A DNA stretch of 64,000 nucleotides from Sphyrna mokarran (taxonomy: Eukaryota), in assembly GCA_024679065.1 (NCBI GenBank), contig JAGIQG010000014.1:39060001-39124000 (forward strand), given 5' to 3'. Both the position numbers and the translations under genes were made by a program. This document shows, one piece after another, positions 6,570-64,000 of the stretch. Within the stretch, counting starts at the first letter, position 1. Each line of letters begins with the position of its first letter. Under the pieces are notes generated by a model that saw nothing but the letters and a program-made list of their open reading frames with translations, had not been told where the DNA came from and did no database searches.

Positions 6570-7490
6570 ATATATCTACTACTTATCTAGCCATCCCACA
6601 AAACTGTCTGTGTCATTTCAAAGTTCTATAATGATGCTCCTCAGTTCACAATACCTCTGCAAATTTTGAGATTGTACCTTGCACACCAAAGCCTTGGTTA
6701 TTTATATAAATTGGAAGAGCAGCATTCCCAGCACTGATCTCTGAAATCTTTCTAGACTGAAGAACCATTGACCTCTATTTTCTGTTTCTCATCACTCAGT
6801 CAATTTTATATCCAATTTGATACTGCCCATTTCATTCCTTAAGCTCTAATATTACTCAAGTCCATTGTTTGGAGAGACTTTGTCAGACGCATTCTCCTCA
6901 TAAACCCGTGCTTTTGCTTCAACAAAAAGCTCAAGCAACTTTATTAAACAGCATAATTTGCCCCGAACAAATCTAGACTGGTTTTCCTCAATTAAGCTGC
7001 ATTTGTCTAAGTGACTAATAAGTAAGGTTGGCATGGTGGCACAATGGTTAGCAATGCTGCCTCACAATGCCAGGGACCTGGTTTCAATTCCCAGCTTGGG
7101 TAACTGTCAGTGTGGAATTTGCACATTCTCCCTGTGTCTGGGTGGGTTTCCTCTAGGTGCTCCAGTTTCCTCCCACAATCTAAAGATGTACGGGTTAGGT
7201 GGATTGGCCATGCTAAATTGCCCCTTGGTGTCAGCAGGGCTAGCTAGGGTAAATGCATGAGGTGTGAGGATAGAGCTTAGGTGAGATTGTGGTCAGTGCA
7301 AACTCGATTGGCTGGATGGCTTCCTTCTGCACTGTATGATTTTATGATTCTATGAACTTTGTCTCAAATTATCATTTGTGGAAGCTTCCCAAGCTTCTAG
7401 AGCTGCTGTTGCTGTATCTTTATAACCTTCTTTAAACAAGGTTATATTCCCAATTTTCTAGTCCTCTGGCACCACCCTTGATTCTAAAAA
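6570..7490 (-). mobile_element. Decayed CR1 RT fragment (SINE inserted at 7026-7354)
   Basis: Minus-strand peptide LIEENQSRFVRGKLCCLIKLLELFVE resembles the CR1 RT motif QHGF.KGRSCLTNLLEFFE. Confidence 0.7.
7026..7354 (+). mobile_element. V-SINE, tail A
   Basis: Full head, core and tail ending TATGATTTTATGATTCTATG. Confidence 0.9.
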
Positions 7491-8774: not shown

Positions 8775-10012
8775 CATCAACAAGTTCCATCCCACCATCA
8801 GACTCACCATGGACTACTCTCCAGAATCAGCTGCATTCCTGGACACATGCATTTCCATCAAAGGGGGCCACCTCAGCACGTCACTATATTGCAAGCCCAT
8901 AGATAACCCCACAATGCTCCATGTCTCCAGCTTCCACCCTAAACACGTTAAAGAAGCCATTCCCTAAAGACAAGCCCTCCAAATACGGGAGATCTGCTCA
9001 GATGGAGGAGGATCGCAACAGACACGTCCAGACTCTGAAAGAAGTTCTCATAAGACCAGGATGTGGCGTTCGACTCAATCGAAAGTTCCAAAGCGCCACA
9101 GTGAAAAACCACACTGAGGACAAACACAGAACACAGCTGACAGAGTACCCTTCGTTGTCCAATATTTCCCTGGAGCAGAGAAGCTACGACATCTTCATAG
9201 CCTTCAACATGTCATCGATGAAGACGAACATCTACCAAGGCTATCCCCACACCCATTTCTTGCCTTCAAACAACCGCACAACCTCAAACAGACCATTGTC
9301 CACAGCCTTCAGGAGAACAGTGACCACGACGTACCAGATCATTGACACAATACCATCATCTCGTGTAAGAAAACCATCCACAGTACATATACTTGCAACT
9401 CGGCCGACGTTGTCAACTTCATATGCTGCAGGAAAGAATATACTGAGGCATGGTACATTGGGGAGATCACGTAAACGCTACAACAAGGAATGAATGAACA
9501 CTGCTCGAAAGTCACCAGACAGGAGTTCTTTTCCTGTGGGGGAACACTTCAGCAATCACAGGCATTCAGCCTCTGATCTTCAGGTAAGCATTCGCTAAAG
9601 CGGCCTTCATGACACACGCCAACGCGGAACACTAAACAGAAACTGATAGCCAAGTTCTGCACACATGAGGACGGCCTCAACCAAGATCATGTCACACTAT
9701 CTCTAACCCCCACGACTTGCCTGGGAATTGCAAAATCTCACTAATTGTCCAGGCTGGAGACTATACAGATCTCTTTAACCCGTGCTTAAGCCTCTCTGCA
9801 CTCATTGTCTGTACCTTTAGGACTTGATTACTTGTAAAGATTCACACTCCAACCATTATTTTGTAAATTGAGTTTGTATCTTTATATGCCCTGTTTGTGA
9901 GCTGAACTCCCACTCACCTGATGAAGGAGCAGTGCTCTGAAAGCTTATGGCTTGTGCTACCAAATAAACTTGTTGGACTTTAACCTGGTGCATGAGACTT
10001 CTTACTGTGCTT
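8775..10012 (+). mobile_element. Penelope-like element: RT C-terminus, GIY-YIG endonuclease relic, terminal repeat
   Basis: INKFHPTIRLTMDYSPESAAFLDTCISIKGGHLSTSLYCKP..HPKHVKEAIP (PLE RT C-terminus); TCNSADVVNFICCRK..AWYIG (GIY-YIG); terminal CTGATGA..GAAAGC..AATAAAC..TTCTTACTGTGC. Confidence 0.9.
9914..9950 (+). ncRNA. Minimal type-I hammerhead ribozyme motif in the Penelope terminal repeat
   Basis: CTGATGA at 9918-9924, stem II GGAGC/GCTCT, GAAA at 9939-9942, palindromic AGCT; stem I partly mutated. Confidence 0.65.
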
Positions 10013-15799: not shown

Positions 15800-16578
15800 C
15801 TCTCACCTCTGTTTTACAAGGTTCTGGGTTCAAGTCCTGCTCCGTGGTTTGAATGCCAGAATCAAGGCTGATACTTCACTGCAGTACTGAGAGATGCTAC
15901 AATCATTGAAGGTGCCATCTTTATATCATTGAGATATAAAACCAAGGACCCCATCTGCCTGCTTGGGTGGATGTGAAAGATCCAATGAAGCTACTTCAAG
16001 GAAGAGCAGGAATGTTATCTAGTTTAAAGTTTACTTATTCGTGTCACAAGTAGGCTTACATTAACACTGCAGTGAAGCTTCTGTGAAAATCCCCTAGTCA
16101 CCACACTCCAGTACCTGTTTGGGTACACTGAAGGATAATTTAGCATGGCCAATGCACCAAACCAGCACATTCCACACAGTTCCTCCTACCAGACAGTGGG
16201 AGGAAACTGGAGCACCCAGGGGAAACCTATGCACACATGGGGAGAATGCGCAGACTCCACACAGATAGTGACCTGAGCTGAGCATTGAATCCTGGTCCTT
16301 GGCACTCTAAGGCAGCAATGCCAACCACCATGCCTGTGTGCCACTCAAGCGTTCCCCAGGTTTTGCCCTTTTTTTTCCTCTCTCAATTGCATCACAAAAG
16401 AATATTGTATGTGGCCATTATCACATTGCTGCTTGTGGAAATTCTTTGAATGCAAATAAAATGCTATGCTTCTTACATTACAACAGTGTCTACACTTCAA
16501 AAGTGTTGAATTGACTGAAAAGTGCTGTGAAGTACCTGGATGGCTTCTTCCAGCATTATGTAAATGCAAGTCTGTCTT
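15800..16578 (+). mobile_element. Deu-domain SINE (SacSINE1/AmnSINE-related) split by a V-SINE
   Basis: B-box GGTTCAAGTCC; Deu core GCAGTACTGAG..GGTGCCATCTTT..AAACCAAGGACCCCATCTGCC..GGTGGATGTGAAAGATCC..GAAGAGCAGG; L2-like tail resumes after 16345 and ends TAAATGCAAGTCT. Confidence 0.75.
16022..16345 (-). mobile_element. V-SINE, tail B
   Basis: GTCACAAGTAGGCTTACATTAACACTGCAG..GTGAAAATCCCCTAG, followed by reverse core and head. Confidence 0.9.
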
Positions 16579-18387: not shown

Positions 18388-18680
18388 GGCAGCACAATAG
18401 TTTGCAAAGCTGCCTCAGTGCCAGGGACCTGGGTTTGATTCCCAGCTTGGGTCACTGTCTTGTGGAGTCTGCACATTCTCCCTGTGTCTGCATAGGTGTC
18501 TTCCAGGTGCTCTGGTTTCCTCCCACAGTTCATAAGACGTGCTGGTTAGGTGCATTGGCCATGCTAAATTCTCACTCAGTGTACACAAACAAGCGCTGGA
18601 GTGTAGCGACTAGGGGATTTTCACAGTAACTTCATTGCAGTGCTAATGCAAGTCTACTTATGACTAATAAATAAACTTAC
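18388..18680 (+). mobile_element. V-SINE, tail B
   Basis: Core plus GCGACTAGGGGATTTTCACAGTAACTTCATTGCAG..AATAAATAAACTT. Confidence 0.9.
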
Positions 18681-19977
18681 ATTCCTAACCTGTGGCTGCT
18701 TTTTAGAGATATGCTTATAACTTTTCCTTTCATAATGAAGAAGTATGTTTGGTACACCTCTTATTGTTGAGTAGTTCAGTTAAAATATTGAATTTTGTTG
18801 TTAGCTTTGTATGACTAATGTCCAATACATAGAACAAAAGAAAATAATGGAAATTGCAGAGTTTGTTTATTATAACAGAAACTGTGAGTGGTGAATATTT
18901 CTGCAATTGAACGTGCTTTAATGATTCAAAATTATTTTTACTTCTGTTTAGCAAATAAATTCCAATTAATTGTTTTGAATTGGTCACTGGAAATATCCCT
19001 TGCATATTATGTTGCATTTCACTCATCCTCTGTCCCAAGGGGAGTATTATATTTTTCAGCACATTTTAAAAAAACAATAGATTAAATTTAAATTATAATG
19101 GAAATCTTTTGATTCACTTACACATGCAGAAACTATTCTCAAACCATATTTTATGATTCTAAATTATTAATTTGATCATTTGAATTATGATTGTGCTAAG
19201 CAAGTTTATCAATTTCTAGAAATTTTATTAAACTGTCATGCTGCTGAAAAATAAGACCATTAATGTTTACATCTTCAGGTGAAATTTTGGTGATATACAT
19301 CCAGAACAGTCATTCCAAATTTATAACATGTAAAGTTGTATGGTTGATCCATTTCATTAGATCATAAACAGCTGCTGTACTTTATCCATCACTGAAATCT
19401 TGCCAGTGTTTATTCCAGTGGGATCTTATGTTCCTGCTGACAGTGTACCCTTCACCTCTGGGAAACTTAATTGACAGTGATGGGATCACAAAATCCCACC
19501 GACAGTAAATGGCATACCATAGAAGGAAGGGGAGGAGTCCTGCCCAATAAATTTAATATTCATTGGGATGTTTTGACTAGAATGCAAAGCTGTTACAAAG
19601 GAAAAATGTATTGCATGGGTATTCAGAACCAGGATATAGAACTAAACAGAAAGCAAACTGATCACAAGCAATGTGGTTCATATAACTTTTAAAACTTCAA
19701 ACATTTTTTCAATGGATTAGTATTGGGATCAAAAAATTCTCTTAGCACCAACTTAGTTTATATGAAATGACTATTTCACTGTTTTCATTGGTACATAAAA
19801 CATATGTTGCAATTTTATCTTAAATCAATTTGATAAATATTTCCATAATTGAAAATATTGTTTAAGGCTGCTCTTTATAAAATAAATAGTTGTGTTGATT
19901 GTTTATGCTTTTCTTTACTTTTCATTCATGAATCATTTAAATGTACATCTTGGAGACTTTTAACTTTAGAAAATGCA

Positions 19978-27172: not shown

Positions 27173-27952
27173 TAAAAGTCTGATCTAGAGTGGGACCACA
27201 AAGCAGTGTATTAAGGTTACTTCCATACCAAACATTGGGCATTATAGTAATACTAAAATAAATGCATGGCTCATAATCACACCATCACTAAGATCACCTA
27301 CCTTTGCAACATTGTCCAACTTCGCCCCATCTCAGCTTATTTGCTGTCAGGTGTGGACTGAACAGTACAAACCAACATCATCTGAACTGGAACATTAATT
27401 GAAGAGTTTCATATTCCAAAGGTCAGGTCTTAAATAATAATGGAGAAGGAAAAGAAAACAAGGAAATCTAAAGGAAAAAGATTATGGAATATAGAAATGA
27501 TGAAATACAAAAACAAGACTTCAATAGAAAACAAAGTTGGAGGAAGAGATTAAAAACAATAGGATTACTAAATGAACAGGGACAGATTTCATTACAATAA
27601 TACAAGATATTTCAATAAAATTAATGAGACAGAGGCATGAATTACTGTGGGAGTGTGGCACAACAACAGTGATGATGATCTGGCTTAGGTGAGGCTGGGA
27701 CTGCTAGATAACCTTTCCTGGGGATGGGATATTCAAGACTAACAGTGGTGCAGAAAGTAAAAGGGTTAGTGATATTAATCAAAGATTCTATAACAAAATC
27801 AGAATATTGCATCTATTTTGTTAGGCTTAAGGATGACAGAAGGACATTGATAAATGAATACCTGGTAGTTTATCTTACTGAAGGCAGCATACAGGAAAAT
27901 ACTTTGAAAGACATTGGTTTGTAGAAAGTAAGTTGTGTCTGTCAAATATTTT

Positions 27953-28233
27953 AAGAAGTCTCACAAAACCAGGTTAAAGTCCAATAGGTTTATTTGGTAG
28001 CACAAGCTTTCACAATGTCGCTCCTTCTTCAGGTAAGTGAGTAGGTGTGTTCACAAACAGGGCATAAATAGACACAAACTCAATTTACAAGATAATGTTT
28101 GGAATGCGAGTCTTTACAGCTAATCAGGTGTTAAAGGTACAGAGAATGAGAGTGGAGAGAGCATTAAGCACGGGTTAAAGAGATGTGTATTGTCTCCAGC
28201 AGGACAGTTAGTGAGATTTTGCAAGCCCAGGCA
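27953..28233 (-). mobile_element. Penelope-like terminal fragment
   Basis: Reverse-complement match to 9712-10005; hammerhead remnant CTGAAGA..GAAAGCTT on the minus strand. Confidence 0.85.
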
Positions 28234-28247
28234 ATGGGCTGTGAACG

Positions 28248-36164: not shown

Positions 36165-38000
36165 TTTTTCATTCCTTACCTCTAGCCAGAGACTCTCTCC
36201 TTGACTCATTGAAGCGTCCTTTCTCTTCAGTACTGTAATACCATCTTTAATCAATACTTCCATTTCTGCACCACTTTTTTTCCTTTCCTATCTTACCTAA
36301 AGATCTTGCACCCAAGGATATTTAATGCCCAGTTCTGCCCTTCTTTGAGCCAGGTCTCTATTATAGCGATAACATTATAATTCCATTTGTCAACCTGTGC
36401 CTGTTGTTTACCAATATTACTAACAACACTCACATACATGCACATTAACTTTGATTTAGGTATTTTTACTTTCCTTCTTACTGTAGCCCTAACTAATGAC
36501 TTACTTTTGCATACTGTAATTTTATCAAACTGCCAAAGTACTCTATTTACCTTAATAATGTATCCCTGATGTATCCTCCTTGTAAGTTAGTATTTCTCAT
36601 CTTCACACTGCCAGCTTTTCTGCTGTCCATTATTGCATTTCCCCTCATGTTCCCATCGTCCCTGACAATCTAGCTTAAACCCTCCCCAACTGCATTGGTA
36701 GGTCTCCATGAATGACATTTATTTCAGTCCTGTTATGGTATAACCCATTCTTCTTGTACAGGTCCCACCTACCCCAGAACCAGTCTCAGTGCCTCAGGAG
36801 TCTAAAGCCATCCCTCCTATTCCACTTCTCAAGCCATGTGTTGAACTGATCAATCTTCTCATTTTTATGTTATCTAGTATGTGGAACTGGGAATAATCTT
36901 AATATTACTGCTTTTGAGAACATGTTTTTTAATTCCCTTCCCAATTCTCTAGGTTCCTTTTCAAGGCTTCATTTCTTTTCCTAGCCATGACATTTGTCCC
37001 AATGTGGACTGCAACCTCTGGCTGGTCACCTTCACCCAACCCTCTCTTTGCCCCAACCCAAAGAATGTCCTCCAAACACAATCTGTGACATCATTGACTC
37101 TGGTACCAGGGAGACAATATACCATCCTGCATCATGCCTATAGCCACAGATTTCCTGATTGCTCTCCTAAATATGGAATTCATATGACTTCACAATCACA
37201 TTTATTCTTTTATTCTACACTTCTTTTTTGTTGTGTAGCTGAGCCACTCATGATGCCACGAACCCAGCCCTGACTAAAGTCTCCTAACGAACCATCTCAC
37301 TCACCAGAATTCAAATGGCTAAAGAGCAGGATCACCCTAGTGGGTTCCTGCACTACATTCTTGTTTTTCTTAGATACTATGGCAGTCACCCATTCCCTCT
37401 TTTCCTGAATACTTCTTAGCTGCAAAACTTGCTGTTCTCAAAATCCTCAGTCTTATGGACACAGCAGAAAGAAAGAGAGCTAGAATTTACAGAGCAAACC
37501 TAAAATTGATGTCACTGGAGTCCCATATGTTGATTGGTTGATAAATTTAGGTCTTTCCATACTTAGCACAGAGGAGACCAATTGGTGAATGACAGGTGAG
37601 CAATTACCTGATGATTCGAGCTACCACTTGAGTTCTGCAATCCAGAGCTCAAGTTTCTGCTGCTAATGACACTTCTGGCAAATGTAGTCATCATTTGATC
37701 TCTGCAACAATTCCCACATCCTGCAGGGTACACATCCCACAGGCTGAGCTGGTCTGATATACCTTAATCTTTATATAAAGTGTTAACCGCAGTATAAGAT
37801 AATTGTTCACCTGTCACTCACCAATTGGTCTCCTCTGTGCTAAGTCTGGAAAGGCCTAAACTTATCAACCAATCAACATCTGGGACTCCTGTGACATCAA
37901 TTTTAGATTTGCTCTGTAAACTCTGACTCTCTTTATGCTGCTTTATGGGCTTCCTTTCTCAGAACCCCCGCTGTTTTATATGATTCCCCATAATAAAGTA
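36165..38000 (-). mobile_element. CR1 5' portion: 5' UTR, ORF1 zinc finger, decayed ORF1 and endonuclease
   Basis: Minus strand PCRMWE..DDYICQKCH..QKLELWIAELK (CR1 ORF1 zinc-finger/leucine-zipper pattern) at ~37620-37750. Confidence 0.7.
37463..37942. repeat. Inverted duplication, ~146-bp arms (37463-37609 and 37797-37942), ~187-bp spacer
   Basis: ACTTAGCACAGAGGAGACCAATTGGTGA vs TCACCAATTGGTCTCCTCTGTGCTAAGT; arms align throughout with scattered mismatches. Confidence 0.9.
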
Positions 38001-38744: not shown

Positions 38745-39050
38745 TCATAAAATCGTAACTATCCTACAGTACAGAAGGAGGTCATTTAGTCCATCAAATC
38801 TATATCGATCACAATCCTATCCAAGTTCTGGTAACCTGCACATTTATCCTGCTAATCTCCTGACACTAGCATGGTCAGTCAACCTAACTCACATACCTTT
38901 GGACTTGGGAGGAAACCGGAATACACGGAGGAAACCAATACAGACACAGGGAGAAAGTGCAACCTCCACAAACAGTGACCTGAGGCTCACCTCAAAACCT
39001 GGCTCACTGGCACTGTGAGGCAGTAGTCTAGCAATTGTGTCACTCATGCC
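38745..39050 (-). mobile_element. V-SINE, tail A (extra tail fragment at ~38597-38660)
   Basis: CCTACAGTACAGAAGGAGG..GGAGGAAACCGGAATAC..GGCACTGTGAGGCAG. Confidence 0.8.
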
Positions 39051-39534
39051 ACTTTACTGCCCATCATTGTTAACATTACTCATATGGTTTATTTTAATTC
39101 TTTCATCTGGTGTAAGCATTGCTGGCAAGGCCAGCGTGTGATGCCCACCTGAAGTTGAACCACAAGAGACTTGGAAGAGGTGAGATTTCTGATGAGGCAG
39201 GAAATGCTGGGTTTTTGATCAAAATCCTATCTGCAGGCATTTCGCATTGGGGTCTGGGTGGGTCGAAATTTTGTCCCACCTCAAAAATGGCCTTTGATGT
39301 GACAGAACTATTGGTCACCTAAAGGTACAAGTTCAAATTTCTGATCAGAACACCAACATTAACTTGGCCAGCTGGTTAAAATTGAGGAGGTGGACTAAAG
39401 AGCATATCAGCTGTGCACAATAACCATTCTTTCAAGTTGTCCTTTAAAAAGATGACCCTGCCAGTGACTCTGGGTATTGTAGTGAGATCAAAAGCATGCA
39501 TGACGATGACTGACCAGGCATGTCCCAGTAACTG

Positions 39535-39835
39535 CAGCAACTGACAAAACCTCCTTTAACAGCACATGACATCAAACACTTAAAAAGATAAAGGCAGTAG
39601 GCACATGGGAACATCACCACTTGCACATTTCCCCCTCCAAATCACACTCAGTTCTGACTTGGAACGAAATCATTGGGTTTTCACTGTCAGTGAGTCAAAA
39701 CCTGGACTTACTTCCCAACAAAACAGTGGGTGTTCCTACATCACATGGACTGCAGCAATTTGAGAAAAGCAATTAAGAATGAGCATCAGATGCTGGCCTT
39801 GCCAGCAATGCTCGCATCTCATGAAAGATTTAAAA
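39535..39835 (+). mobile_element. CR1-like (Zenon-type) LINE 3' end
   Basis: CATGGGAACATCACCACTTGCA..CATGGACTGCAGC..ATGCTGGCCTTGCCAGC. Confidence 0.65.
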
Positions 39836-39867
39836 GAAACCATGTGAGTAATGTTGACAATGATGGA

Positions 39868-40158
39868 TGGCACAGTGGCATGGAGGCACAGTGGTTAACA
39901 CTGCTGCCTCACAGGATCGGGAACCCGGGTTTGATTTCTGGCTTGGGTCACAGAGCCTGCTTGTTCTCCCTATGTTTGCTTGGGTTTCTTCCACATGCTC
40001 TGGATTCCTCCCACAGTTTGAAAGACGGGCTGTTTAGATGCATTGGCCATGCTGACTTCTCCCAAACAGACACCAGAGTGTGGCGTCTGAAGAATTTTTA
40101 TAGTAACTACAATGCAGCATTAATCTAAGCCTACTTGTGACACTAATAAATAAACATT
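39868..40158 (+). mobile_element. V-SINE, tail B
   Basis: GGCACAGTGGTTAACACTGCTGCCTCACAG..GCCTACTTGTGACACTAATAAATAAAC. Confidence 0.85.
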
Positions 40159-52292: not shown

Positions 52293-53120
52293 ATAATGTG
52301 AGGTCTGGAAAGAATGTAATTGCAGCATATCATTGGTTGAAGGAAGTCAGTAAGCAACTCCTCAGCAACAGTGACTCTACAAATGCATCGCAATTGGTTC
52401 CTCAGCCCATTTGCAGTCTGGATATTTTGAGCCAGAGGAAGATGTTGGCTGAGTTCACAAACAGCTGTTTTTGGGTGAGGCTTTTGGATCAACACAGGTT
52501 CTTAGTCATCAAACACTGGGGTAGGGTTACTCCTTCTTTACATGTTTGTGCACAGGCACTGACTGGGGTGAGTTGGAGAGCAACTGATAGACTTCCCAAT
52601 TTAGAATTCTTCCTGTTTAGTCAGTCTCTTGATGTCAGTGACACTAGGAGAGGTGTCTATGGTTCTAAATGTGTTCCGCAGTGAGAATCCAATTTAAGTG
52701 TACAGTGTTCATGTGAAGTGGGAGAGGAACTTAGATATAGCCCATGGAGACTCCATGAGGAAATTTCCATGGATAACAGCCTTTGATACAAAATGAAAGA
52801 GAAAAAAGTCTGCAATGCTGAGGGAAAGAGTTTTAAACTGCTAACACAAGATTGCCCAAGTAGGAAAAGTATGTTAGCAGGCTGGTTAATGACACTGCAT
52901 TTGATTGCATGTGTTTACTGCCTCACAGTGTTACTTACATTGTGATTACATCAATCACTCTAAAGCAAAGTTAACCTAACTTGAAATTCTCATTGTCAGG
53001 GGACTAAGAACTCATATCTATATCATTATATCTAATTACAAAATATTAAAATCTAGACAAACACTTTAAAATGACTGAAGCCATGACTGGCTATAAATCA
53101 AACAAACAGGAACTTTCTGG

Positions 53121-53388
53121 CATTCAGAAAAGTACTCAGTAAGAATTTAGCAACACCAATTTTTAATCCAACCGATTTATTTGATAGTAAATCCGCGAGC
53201 TTTCAACACTCTGTGTCTTCCTCAGGCAAATGCCAAATGCATTTGCCTGAGGAAGACACAGAGTGTTGAAAGCTCGCGGATTTACTATCAAATAAATCGG
53301 TTGGATTAAAAATTGGTGTTGCTAAATTCTTACTGAGTTCTTACCACCCCAATCCAACGCCGGCATCTTTACATCATTCAGAAAAGTA
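53121..53388. mobile_element. Young palindromic Penelope-derived insertion with 14-bp TSD
   Basis: Perfect arms 53134-53233 and 53239-53338, loop CAAAT; PLE end CCCCAATCCAACGCCGGCATC; CATTCAGAAAAGTA at 53121-53134 and 53375-53388. Confidence 0.92.
53241..53281 (+). ncRNA. Minimal hammerhead ribozyme (mirror copy on - strand at 53191-53231)
   Basis: Stem I ATTTGC/GCGGAT, core CTGAGGA, stem II GACAC/GTGTT, GAAA, palindromic AGCT, CUC triplet. Confidence 0.75.
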
Positions 53389-54129
53389 GGCATCCATTTA
53401 CATTCCTTAAGGCAAGCTTGTCAATAGGGATTGCTGGTCTGCTAGGACAAAAGACTCCAACACCTCTTTTGAAATTCCTATTGGTTGAAACATTATCAAC
53501 TTCTAGAATCTTGACTAAGGAATATACATCCTTTGTCAAAGCTAAAGTGGAGAGAAGGGAGACACATAGCCCCCTCCTCCCCCTTCCCCATACTCAAAGC
53601 TGGTGCAAAGTATAATATTGCTTTGTGAAGTTACAAAGCTCAGTTTACCATCTTTCATCAACCAGGAAGAAGCTCAGAGAAAGGGTGAATGATAGACACC
53701 CATCTATGTTCTTTTTACTTGAACTTCTGTGTCATCACTTAAAGATTAATTCACCTCTGTGCCCTACCTCATTGTGCAAGTCATGTCTATTGGAAAAGTG
53801 GATTTTCCAGCATCAGGTTCAGCCTGCTGATCTCTACGAAGGAATACACCATTGGTCTTTTGATTCTGGACTCTGGACTGATATGAAACAATAATTCTTA
53901 TTCTCTGTGGTATTTGCCTTGTATGTTTTTCTTTCCTTTGTCTCTCTTTTATTGCATGAAAGCAAAAGGAGGGGAAATTGCAACCCTCTTTTGACACTTT
54001 GCATTTGTGTAATATAAACTACCTCTCTAAGTTTATCCTATCTCAGGTTTGCTGTGGGATTACTAATAGTAAATTGGAAACTGAAAGGGAGAATTTCTCA
54101 ACCGGTAGCACCCCCTATCTATCTAACTT

Positions 54130-57306: not shown

Positions 57307-57588
57307 ATGATGTGGAGATGTCAGTGTTGGACCGGGATGGGCACAGTAAGAAATCTCACACACCAAGTTAAAGTCTAATAGGTTTATTTCGAATCATGAG
57401 CTTATAGACAAAGGCAGTTGCAGGATAATGGTTGGAATGTGAGTCTTTTCAGATAGTCAAGTTTTACAAGTACAGACAGTGCAAATGGAAAGAGGGATGT
57501 GAAACCTACTTCTCCACTCACCTGATGAAAGCTCATGATTTCGAATAAACCTGTTTGACTTTAGCCTAGTGCTGTGAGACTTCTTACC
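57307..57588. mobile_element. Older inverted Penelope terminal-repeat pair
   Basis: GTAAGAAATCTCACA..GGTTTATTTCGAATCATGAGCTT vs AAGCTCATGATTTCGAATAAACC..GTGAGACTTCTTAC; CTGATGA kept but stem II deleted. Confidence 0.8.
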
Positions 57589-57774
57589 ATTGATGGATGG
57601 TGAGAGGAGAAATCATGACTGTTTAAATTAAATCTCTCCTGTCTTTAACACTGAAATATTCTTTTGTTTCCTTTGATAAAATGGAGCTGACTATCCTAAG
57701 TTGAGTTTTTTCACTAATCCTCAACACAGAGTAGTTACTGCCAAATACGTTCCCATACAGGAATAATAAATGTG

Positions 57775-58508
57775 TAGAGTATAGGGCTAATGGTGGGATT
57801 CTTAACAGTGTTGATGAACAGAGGGATCTTGGTGTATTTGTGCATAGATCCCTGAAAGTAGGCAGTCAAGTCGATAAGGTTGTTAAAAAGGCATATGGAG
57901 TCTTAGCTTTTATTGGTAGGGGGATTGAATATCAGAGCCGCAACGTCATGTTGCAACTGTACAAAACTCTAGTGCGGCCGCACTTGGAGTATTGTGTGCA
58001 GTTCTGGTCCCCACATTATAAGAAAGATGTGGAGGCATTGGAGAGGGTACAGAGGAGGTTTACCAGGATGTTGCCTGGTATGGAGGGCAGGTCTTATGAA
58101 GAGAGGCTGAGGGATTTGAGGTTGTTTTCGTTAGAAAGGAGGCGGCTAAGAGGGGACCTTATCGAAACATATAAGATGATTAGAGGTTTAGATAGGGTGG
58201 ACAGTGATAGCCTTTTTCCTAGGATGGAGAAAGCTAGCACGAGGGGACACAGCTTTAAATTAAGGGGTGATAGTTATAGGACGGATATCAGAGGTAGGTT
58301 CTTTACCCAAAGGGTGGTTCGGGAGTGGAATGCCCTGCCTGCAGCAGTTGTAGATGCGCCAAGTTTGGTGGCGTTTAAGAGGTTAGTTGATAAGTATATG
58401 GAAGAGAAGGGAATGGTTTAGTTTGGAGGGGCATTGCTTTTTATATTGGTCGGCGCAACATCGAAGGCCGAAGGGCCTGTTCTGTGCTGTAATGTTCTAT
58501 GTTCTATA
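57775..58508 (+). mobile_element. Young 5'-truncated CR1/HER1 LINE with uninterrupted RT C-terminal frame (to 58421)
   Basis: QRDLGVFVHRSLK..LYKTLVRPHLEYCVQFWSPHYKKDVEALERVQRRFTR..FFTQRVVREWNALP; tail TTCTATGTTCTAT; CpGs retained. Confidence 0.95.
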
Positions 58509-59892
58509 CTCTTTGTGCCAATACAGAGAGAGGATTTATCTAGTAGTTGATTTTAATTTCCCATGTGCCGCATATGTGAAAATGTGTTTGATAAATCAAC
58601 TTCCATAATTTTACAATCAAACTCTGCAATTGGATACACATCACTTTAGTATAAAACCCATAGACTGTATTCAGGTGTGCAAAACTTAACGAATGATTCA
58701 TCTTGAGTTTTCAGTAAATGAGCCAGTGTAGCCAGGGCAGTTACTGGTCTTTTCAAGGTAGCTAATTGGTCTTTGTGTGTGAGAGAAATGCATGATCTGT
58801 ATTGTGTCAGTCTTTGCTATTGAGCAAACTAAAGGAAGAAGATTCTGATAAAGTTTCTTTTGGGCAATCTTCCAGTTGCAGAGAGTTTTGATGGCTTTGC
58901 ATGTGTGATACATGTTACCCATGGTTTTATGGTTACACATGTATGTATATAAATGCTACATTTGATCACAGAAAATTAAAGATGATTATAATAACAATAA
59001 TAGGGACAATACTTCCCAGCAAATAATAAGTGACTGATACATTAATAGATCTTTGCTGCATCCCCTATGTGGAAAATGGCAGAGGAAAGCAATGATCATG
59101 ATGCTTTGTTGCCAGCTCAGTAAGGATTCGAGTTACAGCAACTGGCTGCTCGTTTCTGCAGTTGAGGTGACTAGGTAGCCTGCCTCGGTGCAAAGCCAAC
59201 TGGGGCCTGGGCGATCGCTGATTTATCCACGGTCTCAGAAGCTTGAGAAATCAGGTAGTGTCTTATTGTGGGGGAGGGGGTTCATCTATATATAAAACAA
59301 AAAAAAATTCCCTCTTCACCACTTTGGATGCGGCCTGTCTTCTAGATTGTGTCCTTGCCTACTTGTCCAAGATGGCAAACTCCCAATGAGTTTGTGCAAT
59401 GAGCAAGCTACTAGTCAGAGTGTGGTGTGGTTCCTTTGCCTTTATTTAAAACCCTGTGGACCTGGATTAAATTCAATCATTAGTACATTGCTTTATATGT
59501 AACACTGTTTCTTTTAAAACATGACTTGTCCATTCATTGCAGTCAGGAACAGCATCAAAGCTCAGCCCAGGTAAAAATAGACAGTAGAAGCTGCTAATCA
59601 GTCCCAAATGTTCATCCTCAAAATCCAGCCAAACTGTTGGAAAATTCAGCGCCAGGTTCTCAAAATTTATTTTAACCCAGTTTTAAATGAAAGATTGACA
59701 TGATGTTCCTTGCTAATAACCTTCCCATCAATGGAGAAGATAATAATCATCTTCAAGCAACAAGTCACTGAAGGTGCTGGAAATCAGAAACCCAGAAACA
59801 TTTGGAAAACATGGAAATCACAAGGTTCAGGTGATATTCAGAGATCACAGGATCCTGGGCCTGTCCTTCACATCAGGTGGATGACAATGAGA

Positions 59893-60190
59893 GTTTATTT
59901 ATTACTTATTAATGTCACAAGTAGGCTTACCTTAACGCTGCAATGAAGATACCGTGAAAATCCCTGAATTGCCACACTTCAGCACCTGTTCAGGTACACT
60001 GAGGGAAAATTTAGCATAGCCAATGCACATAGCCAGCACGTCTTTCAGACTGTGGGAGAAAACAAGAGCACCCGGAGGAAACCCACGCAGGCACGAGGAG
60101 AACGTGGAGACTGCACAGTCACTCAAGCCAGGAATTAAACCCAAGTCCCTGGCACTCTGAGGCAGCAGGCCTAACCACAGTGTCACCCAA
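59893..60190 (-). mobile_element. V-SINE, tail B
   Basis: GTCACAAGTAGGCTTAC..GTGAAAATCCC..GCACCCGGAGGAAACCCACGCAG. Confidence 0.9.
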
Positions 60191-61031
60191 AAGGAAGGAA
60201 AACAGAAGCACCACACAGTAGATTGACCGAATGGCCTGTGAAGTGTTCAGATAGAGAACAGGAGGTCGTCGAAATGGCAGGACTGATAAGGAAGAAAAGA
60301 AATGATAATCCAAGAAATAAAAGGCATTTGTATTATCTAACCGTGAGGTAGAGAAGTGGAATAGTGTAAAGGGCGACAATTGTGAAATTAAAAGCACGAA
60401 TATGACAAACTGAACCAGATTCTAGTGGAATAGGAGCTTTGTGGAAAACAACCTTCAGGTCGAAACGGCGAATCACGGCTAAGTGCCTGCCACAGACACA
60501 TACAGAGTCACTGCCAAAATGCACACTTGATGCTACTGACATGACGGTTAACTGTCACTGCACGTTACAAACGCCCACTTAAATATTCAGGGTGGAAGTT
60601 TGTGTTAGAAATTACTGGCGCGCACCCAAGAACAGAATCCAACAACAGAAACAAAGCGCTTCAAATGCTAACGAGAGAACGCTGCTCGCGTCTGTCACCA
60701 ACATAGAGAAATCAGCTGGGCAGAGGATTGCATTGATATCCTGAAACTCTGGTCCAAGTAATGCTCAGAAAATATCGATGGGAATAGTGATTACATCTAG
60801 ACTGTAAAAAAAAATCGATCGCTTCAAACTGAAGTATCATCCTGCCCGCACGGTGCCGTTATATAATGCAAGAAATATGCATGACTATTCAACAACATTT
60901 AACTGGTTCGACCAACGCGCCTTTCCTAATTAAAAATATATACATTTGGAAAGCCTAAAATTAATATTAACCGAATGGGGGGTGGGGGAGGGACGCCAGT
61001 GATAATGGAATGACTCGTGTCAATGCTGCAG

Positions 61032-61071
61032 CAAGGTCAGCCTTTTAAAAGGTCAGCCTTTGAGGAGGTCA
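61032..61071 (+). promoter_or_regulatory. Three AGGTCA nuclear-receptor half-sites at 16-bp spacing
   Basis: CAAGGTCA 61032-61039, AAAGGTCA 61048-61055, AGGTCA 61066-61071. Confidence 0.5.
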
Positions 61072-61199
61072 ATCTTCTTGTTTACACTGATGGGAGAAGT
61101 TGTGCGTAGGAGGGTGACAAACATTCCTGATAGACACTGTGTCAGCGAGGAATCCGGATCGATAAATTTGGGGGTATGGCGGGGGGGGGGGGGGGGAGG

Positions 61200-61296
61200 G
61201 TGCGGTTATCATCAGTATTCAGGACCACTCTCTCAAAAGGGGGTTCGGCTCGTCACTCTGTACGACCAGCTCCGAAGCACTGTGTACACCGCTCAA
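61200..61296 (+). other. Candidate non-coding first exon of complexin (start uncertain)
   Basis: Donor CAA|GTAAGA after 61296, downstream of the half-site array and G-run; the coding exon has an acceptor, so an upstream exon is required. Confidence 0.35.
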
Positions 61297-63448
61297 GTAA
61301 GATCGCTTGAAATTGCTCATTCAGAGGCAGCCAGGGGCTGGCTGGCTGACTGACTGACTGATTGAGGTTTTTCCTCATCAGTCACGTTAGCGCCCCGCCA
61401 AAGTGTTCCACAAGCTCACTGTGGTTCGTTAGCCTGCTGAAGACCTTACACCCTTCCCCAGGCAAGGCGCCAAGAACGCTGGCTTCAGTTTGATGAGTGT
61501 TGTTGCTGCGTGCTGAGGTTGCCTGATAATCTTTAATCTTAAGAGAGAGGTAGGGAAAAAAAGAAACTGGCTGGTGTAAAACATTTGTGTTTTATATGAA
61601 GTGGAAAATGAGCGATTGCGCTCGCTTGTCGAGTGCGCCCACACCTCCACTTTCCCAGTGCTGTAAAAAATGCGTTCAGAAAGCGTTTGAGAATTATCTC
61701 CCGTGTGAATCAGTTTTCACATCCTTGCGACGTACATCAGATAAGGTCCCTGCTCACAGACTGTTCATTACCCACGCTGCACGGAAATTAAATTGGGTTA
61801 CTTTTGGGGCTGGGGAGACGGAGCCATGTCTGGTGACACCATCTGAATACTGCAAGGAGATTTTTTTATTGCTAATCAGCGTCAGTAAAATCCGACTGAA
61901 TCTCACGATTGAGTTACACAGCACCACATCCATTGCAGCTTAATTGTACCAAACCCACTACTCAAAGCGTTGTTTGATGGAGTTTATTATACCTATAATT
62001 CTTTCCAACTTCCCCGTCCCTGCCCCGGGAGGGGGGCTCCTGAATGCTGCTATGAATATGTTCAAGGCCACCGAATTCGGATAAATGTATCCAAATGTGT
62101 CCATATGTGCAATTTAAGGGACAGAGGAATGGCACCTGCATTTTACTTGTATTAATATTGCTATCAATAATGTTCTAACATTGCAGTGGGGAAAATTGAG
62201 CTTCGAGTAAGCAAAGTGAACTTCTTGCCTTGCGTTCTAAGCTTTACTCACCGTAGCTTTTAATTTCCCAATTAGTGCACAGGGATGTACCGGTGCAGAC
62301 TGCAACATTCGCAATGAGGCGGCGCAATTATTTGTGTCTTTTGATGACTTGTGACAGGAGGACGGTTAATCAAAGCGAGAGCTAATATGATCCCAGGCTG
62401 GACTATTAATTGGCTTTATCATTTTCTTTGAAGTTTAGTTGCTCGCATCTTCACTTTGAATTTCAAAAACACCGAGGGAGAAAGTGGGAAGCTTTAATGA
62501 GGGACAGGCAAGGATTGAAACTGTGGGGAACCAGTTCGGGCCAAGATCCTGCCACTGGCTGGAGCAAGAGGCAATCTATTGATCAGGATCACCTTCAGAG
62601 TAAACATTACGATGCTACCCAGCCGCATTGTCCTAGCCACATAACTGGCTTACAAATTGTACACTGACCTGCACGTTAACTGAAATCCGTGTGTAATCAT
62701 GTGCCTTGGACTTGGCTATAACTTCGACATTCCTGAAAGAGAAAGCAGCCTTGCCCCAATCCACCTGTAGGAGCTGTTCAATATAGTAAAGAATGAGCTC
62801 CCGATATCAACAAGTAAATGACAATGAAACCCAAAATATATTCGGCAGTTCAGGCTGTGTCATGGACAAGGGCAGCCAGTGGATGACCGTTTGCCAGAAC
62901 TGGATGCTGGAATACCTGCGGAATATTTGAAGCATTTTTTTTTGCTGCAGCAGCAGCCGCACTATGTTGCTTTAAGAGGTACAGAGATCAAGGTTTCACT
63001 GCAGTGTTTTTAAATAAAAGAAAAAAATAAATGCATATATATTTAAGAAGCATATATAACTGCAGCTTCTAATGTAACAAGTGCACACGCTGTTTTGTAC
63101 AATCGAAGGTGTGATAACTGCATCATTCCCCTTCACCACTAGAGAGAGTCATGTTTTCCACACAGCGTCGCTGCCTTTAGCCTCCGTAACTTACAGACAC
63201 GCCTTTAGTTGTTGTACATCCAAAAAAATAAGTGAAAAAGGAGTCGGCGTCCGCAGGTCCCATTTCACAGCGACTAAGGCAACGGTACACACGTCCCGTC
63301 CTATTTTGGGGTTTAAGAGCGCCCAGCCTACTCTGTGATAGAAACAGACGGAAGCCAGGGCGGCTGAACTTAGTTCTGGCAAAGCGCGGGTGAGACAACA
63401 GGGCGATTGGAAGCACATTAATCTGTTTTGCTTGTGTCTGGTTTCCAG

Positions 63449-63543
63449 GTCTGACGACGCTCCTGAGCAAATTCAACCAGGAGAGGGAAAAAACCTGAAT
63501 GAAATTTTCTGAAGTCACCAGTGAAGACGCTTAGTTCAGCACC
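63449..63543 (+). other. 5' UTR part of the complexin first coding exon
   Basis: Acceptor TTTGCTTGTGTCTGGTTTCCAG| ends at 63448; 95 nt to the ATG. Confidence 0.75.
63499..63534 (+). promoter_or_regulatory. 11-codon uORF (MKFSEVTSEDA*), in frame with complexin
   Basis: ATG 63499, TAG 63532-63534, 9 nt before the main ATG. Confidence 0.55.
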
Positions 63544-63574
63544 ATGGATTTCGTGATGAAGCAGGCGCTGGGTG
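63544..63574 (+). CDS. CPLX1/CPLX2: Complexin-1/2 first coding exon (MDFVMKQALG + 1 nt); rest of the gene lies beyond the window
   Basis: Kozak CACCATGG; ATG GAT TTC GTG ATG AAG CAG GCG CTG GGT G|GTGAGT; matches the complexin-1/2 N-terminus and its 31-nt phase-1 first coding exon; paralogue not resolvable from 10 codons. Confidence 0.95.
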
Positions 63575-63815
63575 GTGAGTGAAAAGCCAGTGCTTGTACT
63601 GTTCGAACCAGTCTCTCGATGCCCTTAAGCCGAACGCGGAAGGATGATTTAGGAAGCTGATTTTCTCCTTTTTTTAAAAAACACACTTGACAGTGCTCAT
63701 GTCGACCGTCTCCCCGCGCTCCCATCTCGTTCTTAACCCAACTCAGCTTTTCATTGAGAAAATAAAAGGTTAAAATAGAACGGGGGCATGTCAGGGAGGG
63801 AGGTTCCCCGAGAGC

Positions 63816-63873
63816 TCAAGGTCAGGCTGTCTGCTCGAAACCGGTGTAAAGGTTAAACGACGCTCCGAGGTCA
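63816..63873 (+). promoter_or_regulatory. ERR response element plus a second half-site in the intron
   Basis: TCAAGGTCA 63816-63824; AGGTCA 63868-63873. Confidence 0.45.
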
Positions 63874-64000
63874 AGCAGCCAGGGGTGCTAAGGGATTAGT
63901 GCCGATAATAAGCCTATGCTCCCCAGAGGCACTGTGACTAGCGTACAGTCAATGATGTTCACAAACTCGGCATGTCTTCTTAAAGGAACAGTGCACTTTA

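Follow-up and report, generated by a model that had tools for sequence, protein, structure and literature searches.

The question raised by this locus is how a long, mismatch-free inverted repeat with a hammerhead motif in each arm came to be inserted in shark DNA, i.e. whether it is a mobile ribozyme hairpin in its own right or the product of an ordinary retroelement integration. An exhaustive scan of the whole 64-kb stretch of Sphyrna mokarran DNA analyzed here (the window) for exact inverted repeats with loops of up to 11 nt revealed two arms of 100 bp each (53134-53233 and 53239-53338), separated by the loop CAAAT. This agrees with the first-pass annotation, which had described mismatch-free 100-bp arms around a 5-nt loop; under the same loop limit, the runner-up exact inverted repeat in the window measures 12 bp. 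The arms lie within an insert of 240 bp between the two copies of a target-site duplication (TSD), and the flanks of the insertion are single-copy within the window. The features of the insertion, which we assign to the Penelope-like elements (PLEs), are as follows:

53121-53134: left copy of the TSD, 14/14 exact, its final base common to the inverted arm
53134-53233, minus strand: inverted, tail-less, 5′-truncated pLTR fragment (left arm; profile E 1.5e-8)
53227-53245: inversion junction, a 7-nt tandem duplication overlapping a 12-nt perfect palindrome
53239-53338, plus strand: direct 5′-truncated pLTR fragment (right arm; profile E 3.6e-12 with the tail)
53339-53374, plus strand: PLE tail of 36 nt, present at one end only and probably extending to 53377 (3-nt overlap with the TSD)
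53375-53388: right copy of the TSD, 14/14 exact

The two TSD copies differ at the base immediately beyond each end. A match of this length is expected by chance at a level of about 6e-6 (composition, over 1,000 placements); when position pairs were drawn at random from this repeat-rich window, 3 of 20,000 gave one. The exact 14-bp duplication reported previously is present, but its outer bases are shared with the element: because the left arm overlaps the TSD by 1 base and the tail probably by 3 nt, the true length is probably 10-14 bp. The loop is non-random. It lies at 53234-53238, within a centre made up of the 7-nt tandem duplication (53227-53233 and 53234-53240) and a perfect palindrome with zero spacer (53234-53245). 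The odds of a loop completing the 12-nt palindrome are about 1 in 600 by composition.

To trace the origin of the arms, we searched the window with a profile that excluded the element itself and was trained on four older copies (A, 9880-10010; B, 27952-28075; C, 57307-57403; D, 57499-57587). The search yielded six matches, namely the four training copies and the two arms, which supports the Penelope origin proposed earlier. With blastn, the right arm matched two other places in the window weakly (67-69% identity, E 0.06-0.2). The short Penelope end noted beside the palindrome corresponds to the known 30-40-bp PLE tail, here 36-39 nt. The full extent of the older copies is:

8776-10010, plus strand: copy A, an old 5′-truncated PLE reaching from the RT thumb to a GIY-YIG remnant, with a decayed hammerhead at 9918 and a tail-less end
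27952-28234, minus strand: copy B, an old pLTR with a decayed hammerhead at 28032 and a tail-less end
57307-57495, minus strand: copy C, an old pLTR, internally deleted but with its full tail, in head-to-head orientation to D
57498-57587, plus strand: copy D, the old tail-less inverted partner of C, in the same architecture as the insertion at 53121-53388

Copies C (with tail) and D (without) meet head-to-head at 57495/57498 and show 83% identity over 59 nt. They have variants in common that distinguish them from A and B, and each contains an internal deletion in the hammerhead region. The pair (57307-57587) represents an older inverted insertion, 4 kb from the palindrome. No convincing TSD was found around A, B or C/D.

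The broken ORF of copy A (stops written as X) matches 61 of 159 candidate proteins; a species name is attached to 27 of these 61, and all 27 come from sharks. Its close relatives contain an RT end, a Cys-rich linker and a GIY-YIG motif. Pfam searches detected RVT_1 together with GIY-YIG in one of six relatives scanned, below the curated cut-offs, and found no family in any of the three frames of copy A, whose identity is given through its homologues. The Cys linker is described as a mark of the Neptune group (PMC3846280). Judged from sequence comparison, the arms are 3′ ends of a PLE subfamily that is related to, and distinct from, the older copies; its clade is probably Neptune-type, as suggested by the 67-69% pLTR identity to these copies and by the Cys linker in the relatives of copy A. 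No other member of the parent subfamily is present in the window, the nearest relatives there being the 67-69% identical ones. In combining pLTR homology, an inverted 5′-truncated copy, a 36-39-nt tail and a TSD, the insertion shows the pattern of endonuclease-containing PLEs. It has no RT/GIY-YIG ORF of its own: the insert is 240 bp long, and stops occur in all three sense frames of the right arm. An ATG at 53237, within the central palindrome, opens a 47-codon frame that runs to 53377 with one stop, at hammerhead position 11.1; a single stop in 47 codons is not unusual. As a candidate start of the parent ORF this ATG is unsupported: the frame has no protein relative, none of three candidate proteins having scored (a weak negative).

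Each arm contains a candidate ribozyme:

53241-53281, plus strand: minimal type I hammerhead motif, recognized by motif, pairing and homology; predicted cut after 53275
53191-53231, minus strand: minimal type I hammerhead motif, mirror copy, with C3 at 53225

The right-arm motif is composed of (i) a 6-bp stem I (53241-53246 with 53276-53281), (ii) the core, starting at 53247, (iii) a 5-bp stem II (53255-53267) and (iv) GAAA, AGCU (53271-53274) and CUC (53273-53275). An extra A is placed between hammerhead positions 9 and 10.1. The characters of a minimal type I hammerhead, i.e. the core boxes, stems I and II, the palindromic 15.1-16.1 segment, the NUH triplet and the extra base at 9/10.1, are present, and the earlier claim of a minimal core in each arm holds, except that pair 10.1-11.1 is G-U and not the conserved G-C in both arms. 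Copies A and B likewise have G-U at this pair, which may be a trait of the family or a result of CpG decay; the literature searched contained no assay of how it affects activity. No Rfam family reached its gathering score in the window, and none of the 24 matches obtained for 53000-53500 at E values up to 10 is a hammerhead, the best being generic hairpin matches. Because Rfam finds no hammerhead family, the ribozyme call rests on motif, pairing and homology. A relaxed scan of the window, allowing an extra base before stem II, gave nine core-like matches, four of them in PLE copies; a strict pattern without that base misses the element.

The first-pass annotation had stated that both stems differ from those of the copy at 9918 and yet pair, which would suggest selection on structure. 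This holds cleanly only for stem II, in which three of the five pairs are changed on both sides. Stem I is broken by a 7-nt insertion in the copy at 9918, where position 17 is U; stem I of the element itself contains two G-U pairs. Since copies A and B have decayed in place, the structural conservation is best assigned to active parent lineages and not to the element's own copy.

The general architecture is known. Arkhipova et al. (2013) described inverted pLTRs with a tail at one end, TSDs of 8-10 bp and palindromes at the inversion junction, for which self-priming was proposed (PMC3846280), and the account of Craig et al. (2021) includes an inverted 5′-truncated copy beside a direct one and a 30-40-bp tail, often at one end only (PMC8557442). 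The palindrome is mostly an ordinary PLE insertion form, unusually short and clean. The closest counterparts are Pen2a, Pen2 and Pen3a of Adineta vaga, which, as described (PMC3846280; scheme in PMC8557442), share the head-to-head inverted 5′-truncated copy, the 30-40-bp tail at one end, the junction palindrome and the TSD. The shark insertion differs in that it has no ORF and consists of two almost equal copies of about 100 bp, in its TSD of 10-14 instead of 8-10 bp, and in having a 7-nt duplication rather than a clean overlap at its junction. We regard it as very probably a single, young, dead-on-arrival insertion of a shark PLE in the inverted pLTR plus tail form, with both copies extremely 5′-truncated.

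The age signs are the identity of the arms (100/100) and of the TSD copies (14/14); arm-to-arm conversion could keep the arms alike, but not the TSD. In addition, the element retains five CpGs, an observed/expected ratio of 0.87 where the window as a whole has 0.25 and the old copies have 0-0.38, although 183 of 3,193 equal-sized windows hold as many. The insertion is young, and undated. The earlier description of a very recent, ORF-less unit of about 240 bp is borne out by the identical arms and TSD and the lack of an ORF of its own.

The 3′ ends of the pLTR copies bear on the mechanism. Measured from a shared hexamer, all six ends in the window fall into two clusters: an inner one (B at 0, D at +1, the left arm at +6, A at +6 to +8) and an outer one (C at +40, the right arm at +42 to +45); the sample comprises six ends from one window, and decay has made those of the old copies less sharp. 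The left arm has its outer end within the 8-nt zone where the three older tail-less copies (A, B and D) stop. Because A and B, which have no inverted partner in the window, also end there, this outer end looks like a priming site and not like a point at which copying came to a halt; the inner end site thus acts as an independent start site. Copies A and B may, however, have lost a partner or a tail after insertion. Set against the published description, the two clusters fit the two RT start sites of the Anolis carolinensis element Poseidon_Ac (PAc). In that study, by Frangieh et al. (2024), the PLE protein is described as cleaving and extending both target strands from the same start sites; two RNA start sites bound the 30-40-bp tail, ribozyme cleavage is dispensable, and initiation in vitro proceeds without the need for target homology (PMC11167929).

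The likeness to PAc, as reported there, extends further: the hammerhead precedes two end positions that lie 30-40 nt from each other, the inner ends scatter over about 8 nt, the template is uncleaved RNA, and an ATT motif is found at one target edge. The shark element would belong to a different clade, to judge from the Neptune-type Cys linker of the copy A relatives, and an ORF start within the hammerhead is unsupported in it. In the parts of the PAc report available to us, two-strand extension is not tied to inverted pLTRs (PMC11167929). At the junctions of the shark insertion, element and target sequences overlap by 3 nt on the right and 4/5 nt on the left, which may be due to chance, as initiation in vitro needs no target homology. 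The arms reach 37-42 nt 5′ of the predicted cut site, which implies a template that was uncut or religated.

The end clusters, the junction overlaps, the arms extending past the cut site and the palindromic centre lead us to prefer a model in which each target end primes on its own pLTR copy and the products are joined at the palindrome; we give it close to an even chance. According to this model, (i) the GIY-YIG domain would nick both strands 10-14 nt apart; (ii) the bottom-strand end would prime reverse transcription at the tail-end start site; (iii) the top-strand end would prime 36-39 nt further upstream, at the internal start site, using a second pLTR copy, which may be a separate RNA or the other pLTR within a tandem transcript; (iv) both cDNAs would pass the uncleaved hammerhead and halt 8 and 13 nt 5′ of its core, within the short palindrome; and (v) the two cDNAs would be joined head-to-head, with fill-in creating the TSD. 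The ribozymes would then be inherited passengers of the insertion. The two RNA copies could be held together by the central palindrome, for which an intermolecular 12-bp duplex is predicted at -32.3 kcal/mol, compared with 2 x -9.7 kcal/mol. The anatomy, homology, end positions and predicted folding were obtained here, the two start sites, two-strand cleavage and extension and ribozyme dispensability are taken from the papers cited, and the order of events is what we infer.

The main competitor, a close one that we consider somewhat less probable, starts from the same one-off PLE insertion, in which a tail-primed cDNA stops at the palindrome, folds back with a 7-nt slip and copies itself; resolution of the hairpin at the boundary of the tail would then allow it to be linked to the opposite end of the target. 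The identical arms speak for such self-copying, and two observations fit it as well as they fit priming from both ends. One is the near-symmetric centre (a perfect palindrome plus a 7-nt duplication); the other is that the arm with the tail exceeds its partner in length at each of the two inverted loci, as fold-back requires (by 5 nt here and, at C/D, by about 100 nt). Palindromes at inverted junctions had led to the proposal of self-priming (PMC3846280), and endonuclease resolution was put forward for the tail (PMC8557442). The lack of a TSD around C/D, A and B counts against the favoured reading as a whole. On the other hand, self-copying needs an extra step to explain why the copied arm ends within the 8-nt zone of the unpartnered copies A and B, only a weak DNA hairpin (-0.8 to -4.2 kcal/mol) is predicted for the end of the cDNA, and the later in vitro work, as described, accounts for the tail by two RT start sites (PMC11167929).

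A further possibility, suggested in part by the first-pass annotation, is a non-autonomous, ORF-less family of palindromic hairpins, re-amplified as a 240-bp unit by a PLE protein in trans. Its assessment depends on the predicted behaviour of the RNA. In an isolated arm, stem II forms with a pair probability of 0.95-1.00, while that of stem I is 0.65-0.79 in a 47-mer and 0.04-0.10 in the arm with the tail; in RNA that includes the other arm, both stems fall to 0.00. The penalty for adopting the ribozyme fold amounts to 51 kcal/mol for a start at 53200 and to 76.8 kcal/mol for the whole unit, and even in isolation the ribozyme-region folds are no stabler than shuffled sequences (z 0.07 to -0.34). 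Another structure is affected in the same way:

53297-53363, plus strand: predicted pLTR stem-loop, arm paired with tail (0.73-0.99 in the single arm, 0.00 in the full hairpin)

As the two motifs lie on opposite strands and are never both on one RNA, the cis dimer, the form that minimal hammerheads are thought to need, is not available. For a trans dimer, nearest-neighbour energies, which ignore tertiary contacts, predict the active form (-13.3) to be less stable than the best dimer (-24.1) or two monomers (-19.4). In published assays, a single minimal motif did not cleave (PMC4209133), the Anolis motif did not cleave without protein (PMC11167929), and one of nine Xenopus retrozyme dimers did (bioRxiv 10.64898/2026.07.22.740005), as far as these accounts go. 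On these predictions the ribozymes are probably not functional at this locus, and as a ribozyme element in its own right the insertion probably has no activity. A read-through RNA, in which the antisense arm comes first, would be expected to fold as a 100-bp dsRNA hairpin and not as a ribozyme. The earlier proposal that transcription gives either the same ribozyme or a dsRNA hairpin is therefore retained for the hairpin and, in view of the 76.8 kcal/mol penalty, dropped for the ribozyme.

We consider such a hairpin family improbable. It draws some support from the ability of pLTRs to mobilize intervening DNA in trans, as reported in PMC3846280, and from PLE-derived non-autonomous retrozymes in vertebrates, which according to the preprint include one cartilaginous fish (bioRxiv 10.64898/2026.07.22.740005); the copy is also young with a clean TSD, and the non-consensus U11.1 occurs in both arms, so that it may predate the insertion in its source. 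Against this, no second copy of the element was found in the 64-kb window, which is weak evidence in a multi-gigabase genome, and the ribozyme and the tail stem-loop are both predicted to be absent from the hairpin RNA. With the stem-loop lost, this RNA would be a poor template, if structure matters as it seemingly does in Anolis. Moreover, ordinary PLE integration already gives every feature. Thus, where the earlier annotation left a choice between a hairpin family and an integration product, the latter is upheld and the former has no positive evidence, one locus being present in 64 kb. A shared hairpin centre would be too loose a test for a family, since a palindrome native to the parent would give independent insertions a similar centre. 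Contigs of prokaryotic genomes contained no match to the element, as expected. A literature search covering few subscription papers and none of the 2005-2008 Penelope reviews gave no report of ORF-less palindromic PLE families, nor of priming from both target ends for inverted pLTRs; both are weak negatives.

Non-LTR retrozymes, as described in PMC7229834 and bioRxiv 10.64898/2026.07.22.740005, resemble the shark unit in being short, non-coding and pLTR-related, with a type I hammerhead and a similar size. Known retrozymes, however, form head-to-tail arrays with the ribozyme twice on one strand, so that each RNA has two ribozymes and can release circles, whereas the shark unit is head-to-head, with one ribozyme per strand and no monomer excision; no tandem head-to-tail array was found at the locus. 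The minimal hammerheads of metazoan PLEs (PMC4209133) are likewise type I motifs without loop 3, with a palindromic AGCU and an extra nucleotide at 9/10.1. Among them, Cervera and de la Peña (2014) describe dual minimal hammerheads in Schistosoma, about 100-700 bp apart on opposite strands (PMC4209133). The shark motifs differ from those reported there in having G10.1-U11.1 instead of the conserved G-C, in the distance between the cores, which start at 53247 (plus) and 53225 (minus), only 22 nt apart, and in stem lengths (stem II 5 bp and stem I 6 bp, compared with 7-8 and 4-5 bp in the Schistosoma families).

An assembly or library fold-back artefact is very unlikely. Perfect palindromes are a known class of artefact. 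Inverted PLE structures are also said to trouble assemblers (PMC8557442), but here each outer end passes via an exact direct duplication into single-copy flanking sequence, while a read fold-back would invert the flanking DNA and create no such duplication; furthermore, the asymmetry of the structure is the PLE tail, and a natural older example (C/D) lies 4 kb away. Least credible of all is a MITE, a foldback DNA transposon or a host microRNA hairpin. Inverted repeats of this length flanked by a duplication would suit it, as would the sub-threshold Rfam matches to mir-4796 (50.9 bits) and mir-581 (48.9 bits), but the repeats are not terminal (36 nt separate the right arm from the TSD, with no counterpart at the left arm), the profile identifies the arms as retroelement 3′ ends, and the Rfam scores, far under the gathering values of 90 (mir-4796) and 100 (mir-581), reflect the hairpin alone.

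The interest of the insertion lies in what such loci can show about the origin of PLE inverted repeats. The 2013 and 2021 papers, as described, invoke self-priming or undefined steps (PMC3846280, PMC8557442), and the 2024 biochemistry explains the tail only (PMC11167929). The insertion records both priming sites and the central joint within 270 bp, and a genome-wide census of such tiny, young, TSD-flanked loci would separate priming from both target ends from fold-back copying by computation. If priming from both ends is correct, the locus would be a minimal footprint of the origin of inverted pLTRs. It also points to a recently active PLE subfamily in the shark and, if transcribed, would be a source of perfect dsRNA. 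Were a hairpin family to exist after all, it would constitute an inverted counterpart of retrozymes with its centre fixed by a short palindrome, and each copy would be a ready source of 100-bp dsRNA against the parent family.

We also inspected the surroundings of the insertion. Immediately to the right of the TSD, the host sequence at 53389-53403 is similar to the tail terminus, with 13 matching positions and a 2-nt gap. In a loose test, an equal score was reached by 89 of 5,000 random sites; in a position-fixed test, selected post hoc, it was reached by none of 5,000. The endonuclease of Drosophila Penelope reportedly needs tail sequence for recognition (PMC11167929), and target choice by likeness to the tail is possible. 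The empty target (53115-53131) contains a 6-bp inverted repeat whose 5-nt loop includes the left edge of the TSD; 194 of 10,000 random sites are equal in this respect.

Two other inverted repeats are present in the window. The first (37472-37612 and 37794-37934; 141 bp, 91% complementary, 181-nt spacer) is single-copy in the window, has no clear TSD and no match to the PLE profile, and is possibly a MITE. The second is a 103-bp pair (39045-39147 and 39780-39882; 83%) beside SINE copies, probably two copies of a common repeat. A Pfam search for host genes gave no match in 13 open frames or in the 150 longest of 285 unmasked ones, and a bacterial promoter scan, irrelevant to shark DNA, stayed at background level. 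A 228-codon open frame at 57735-58421, without a Pfam match, presumably derives from the 3′ end of a CR1/L2-type LINE, which it resembles. A dispersed repeat of about 250-300 bp, which we take to be SINE-like by resemblance, is abundant at 70-85% identity (e.g. 249-511, 7029-7232, 16021-16343, 18416-18681 and 59892-60169). At 60000-64000, the CpG observed/expected ratio rises to 0.5-0.8, compared with 0.25, and this region, 7 kb from the insertion, is possibly a CpG island or promoter.
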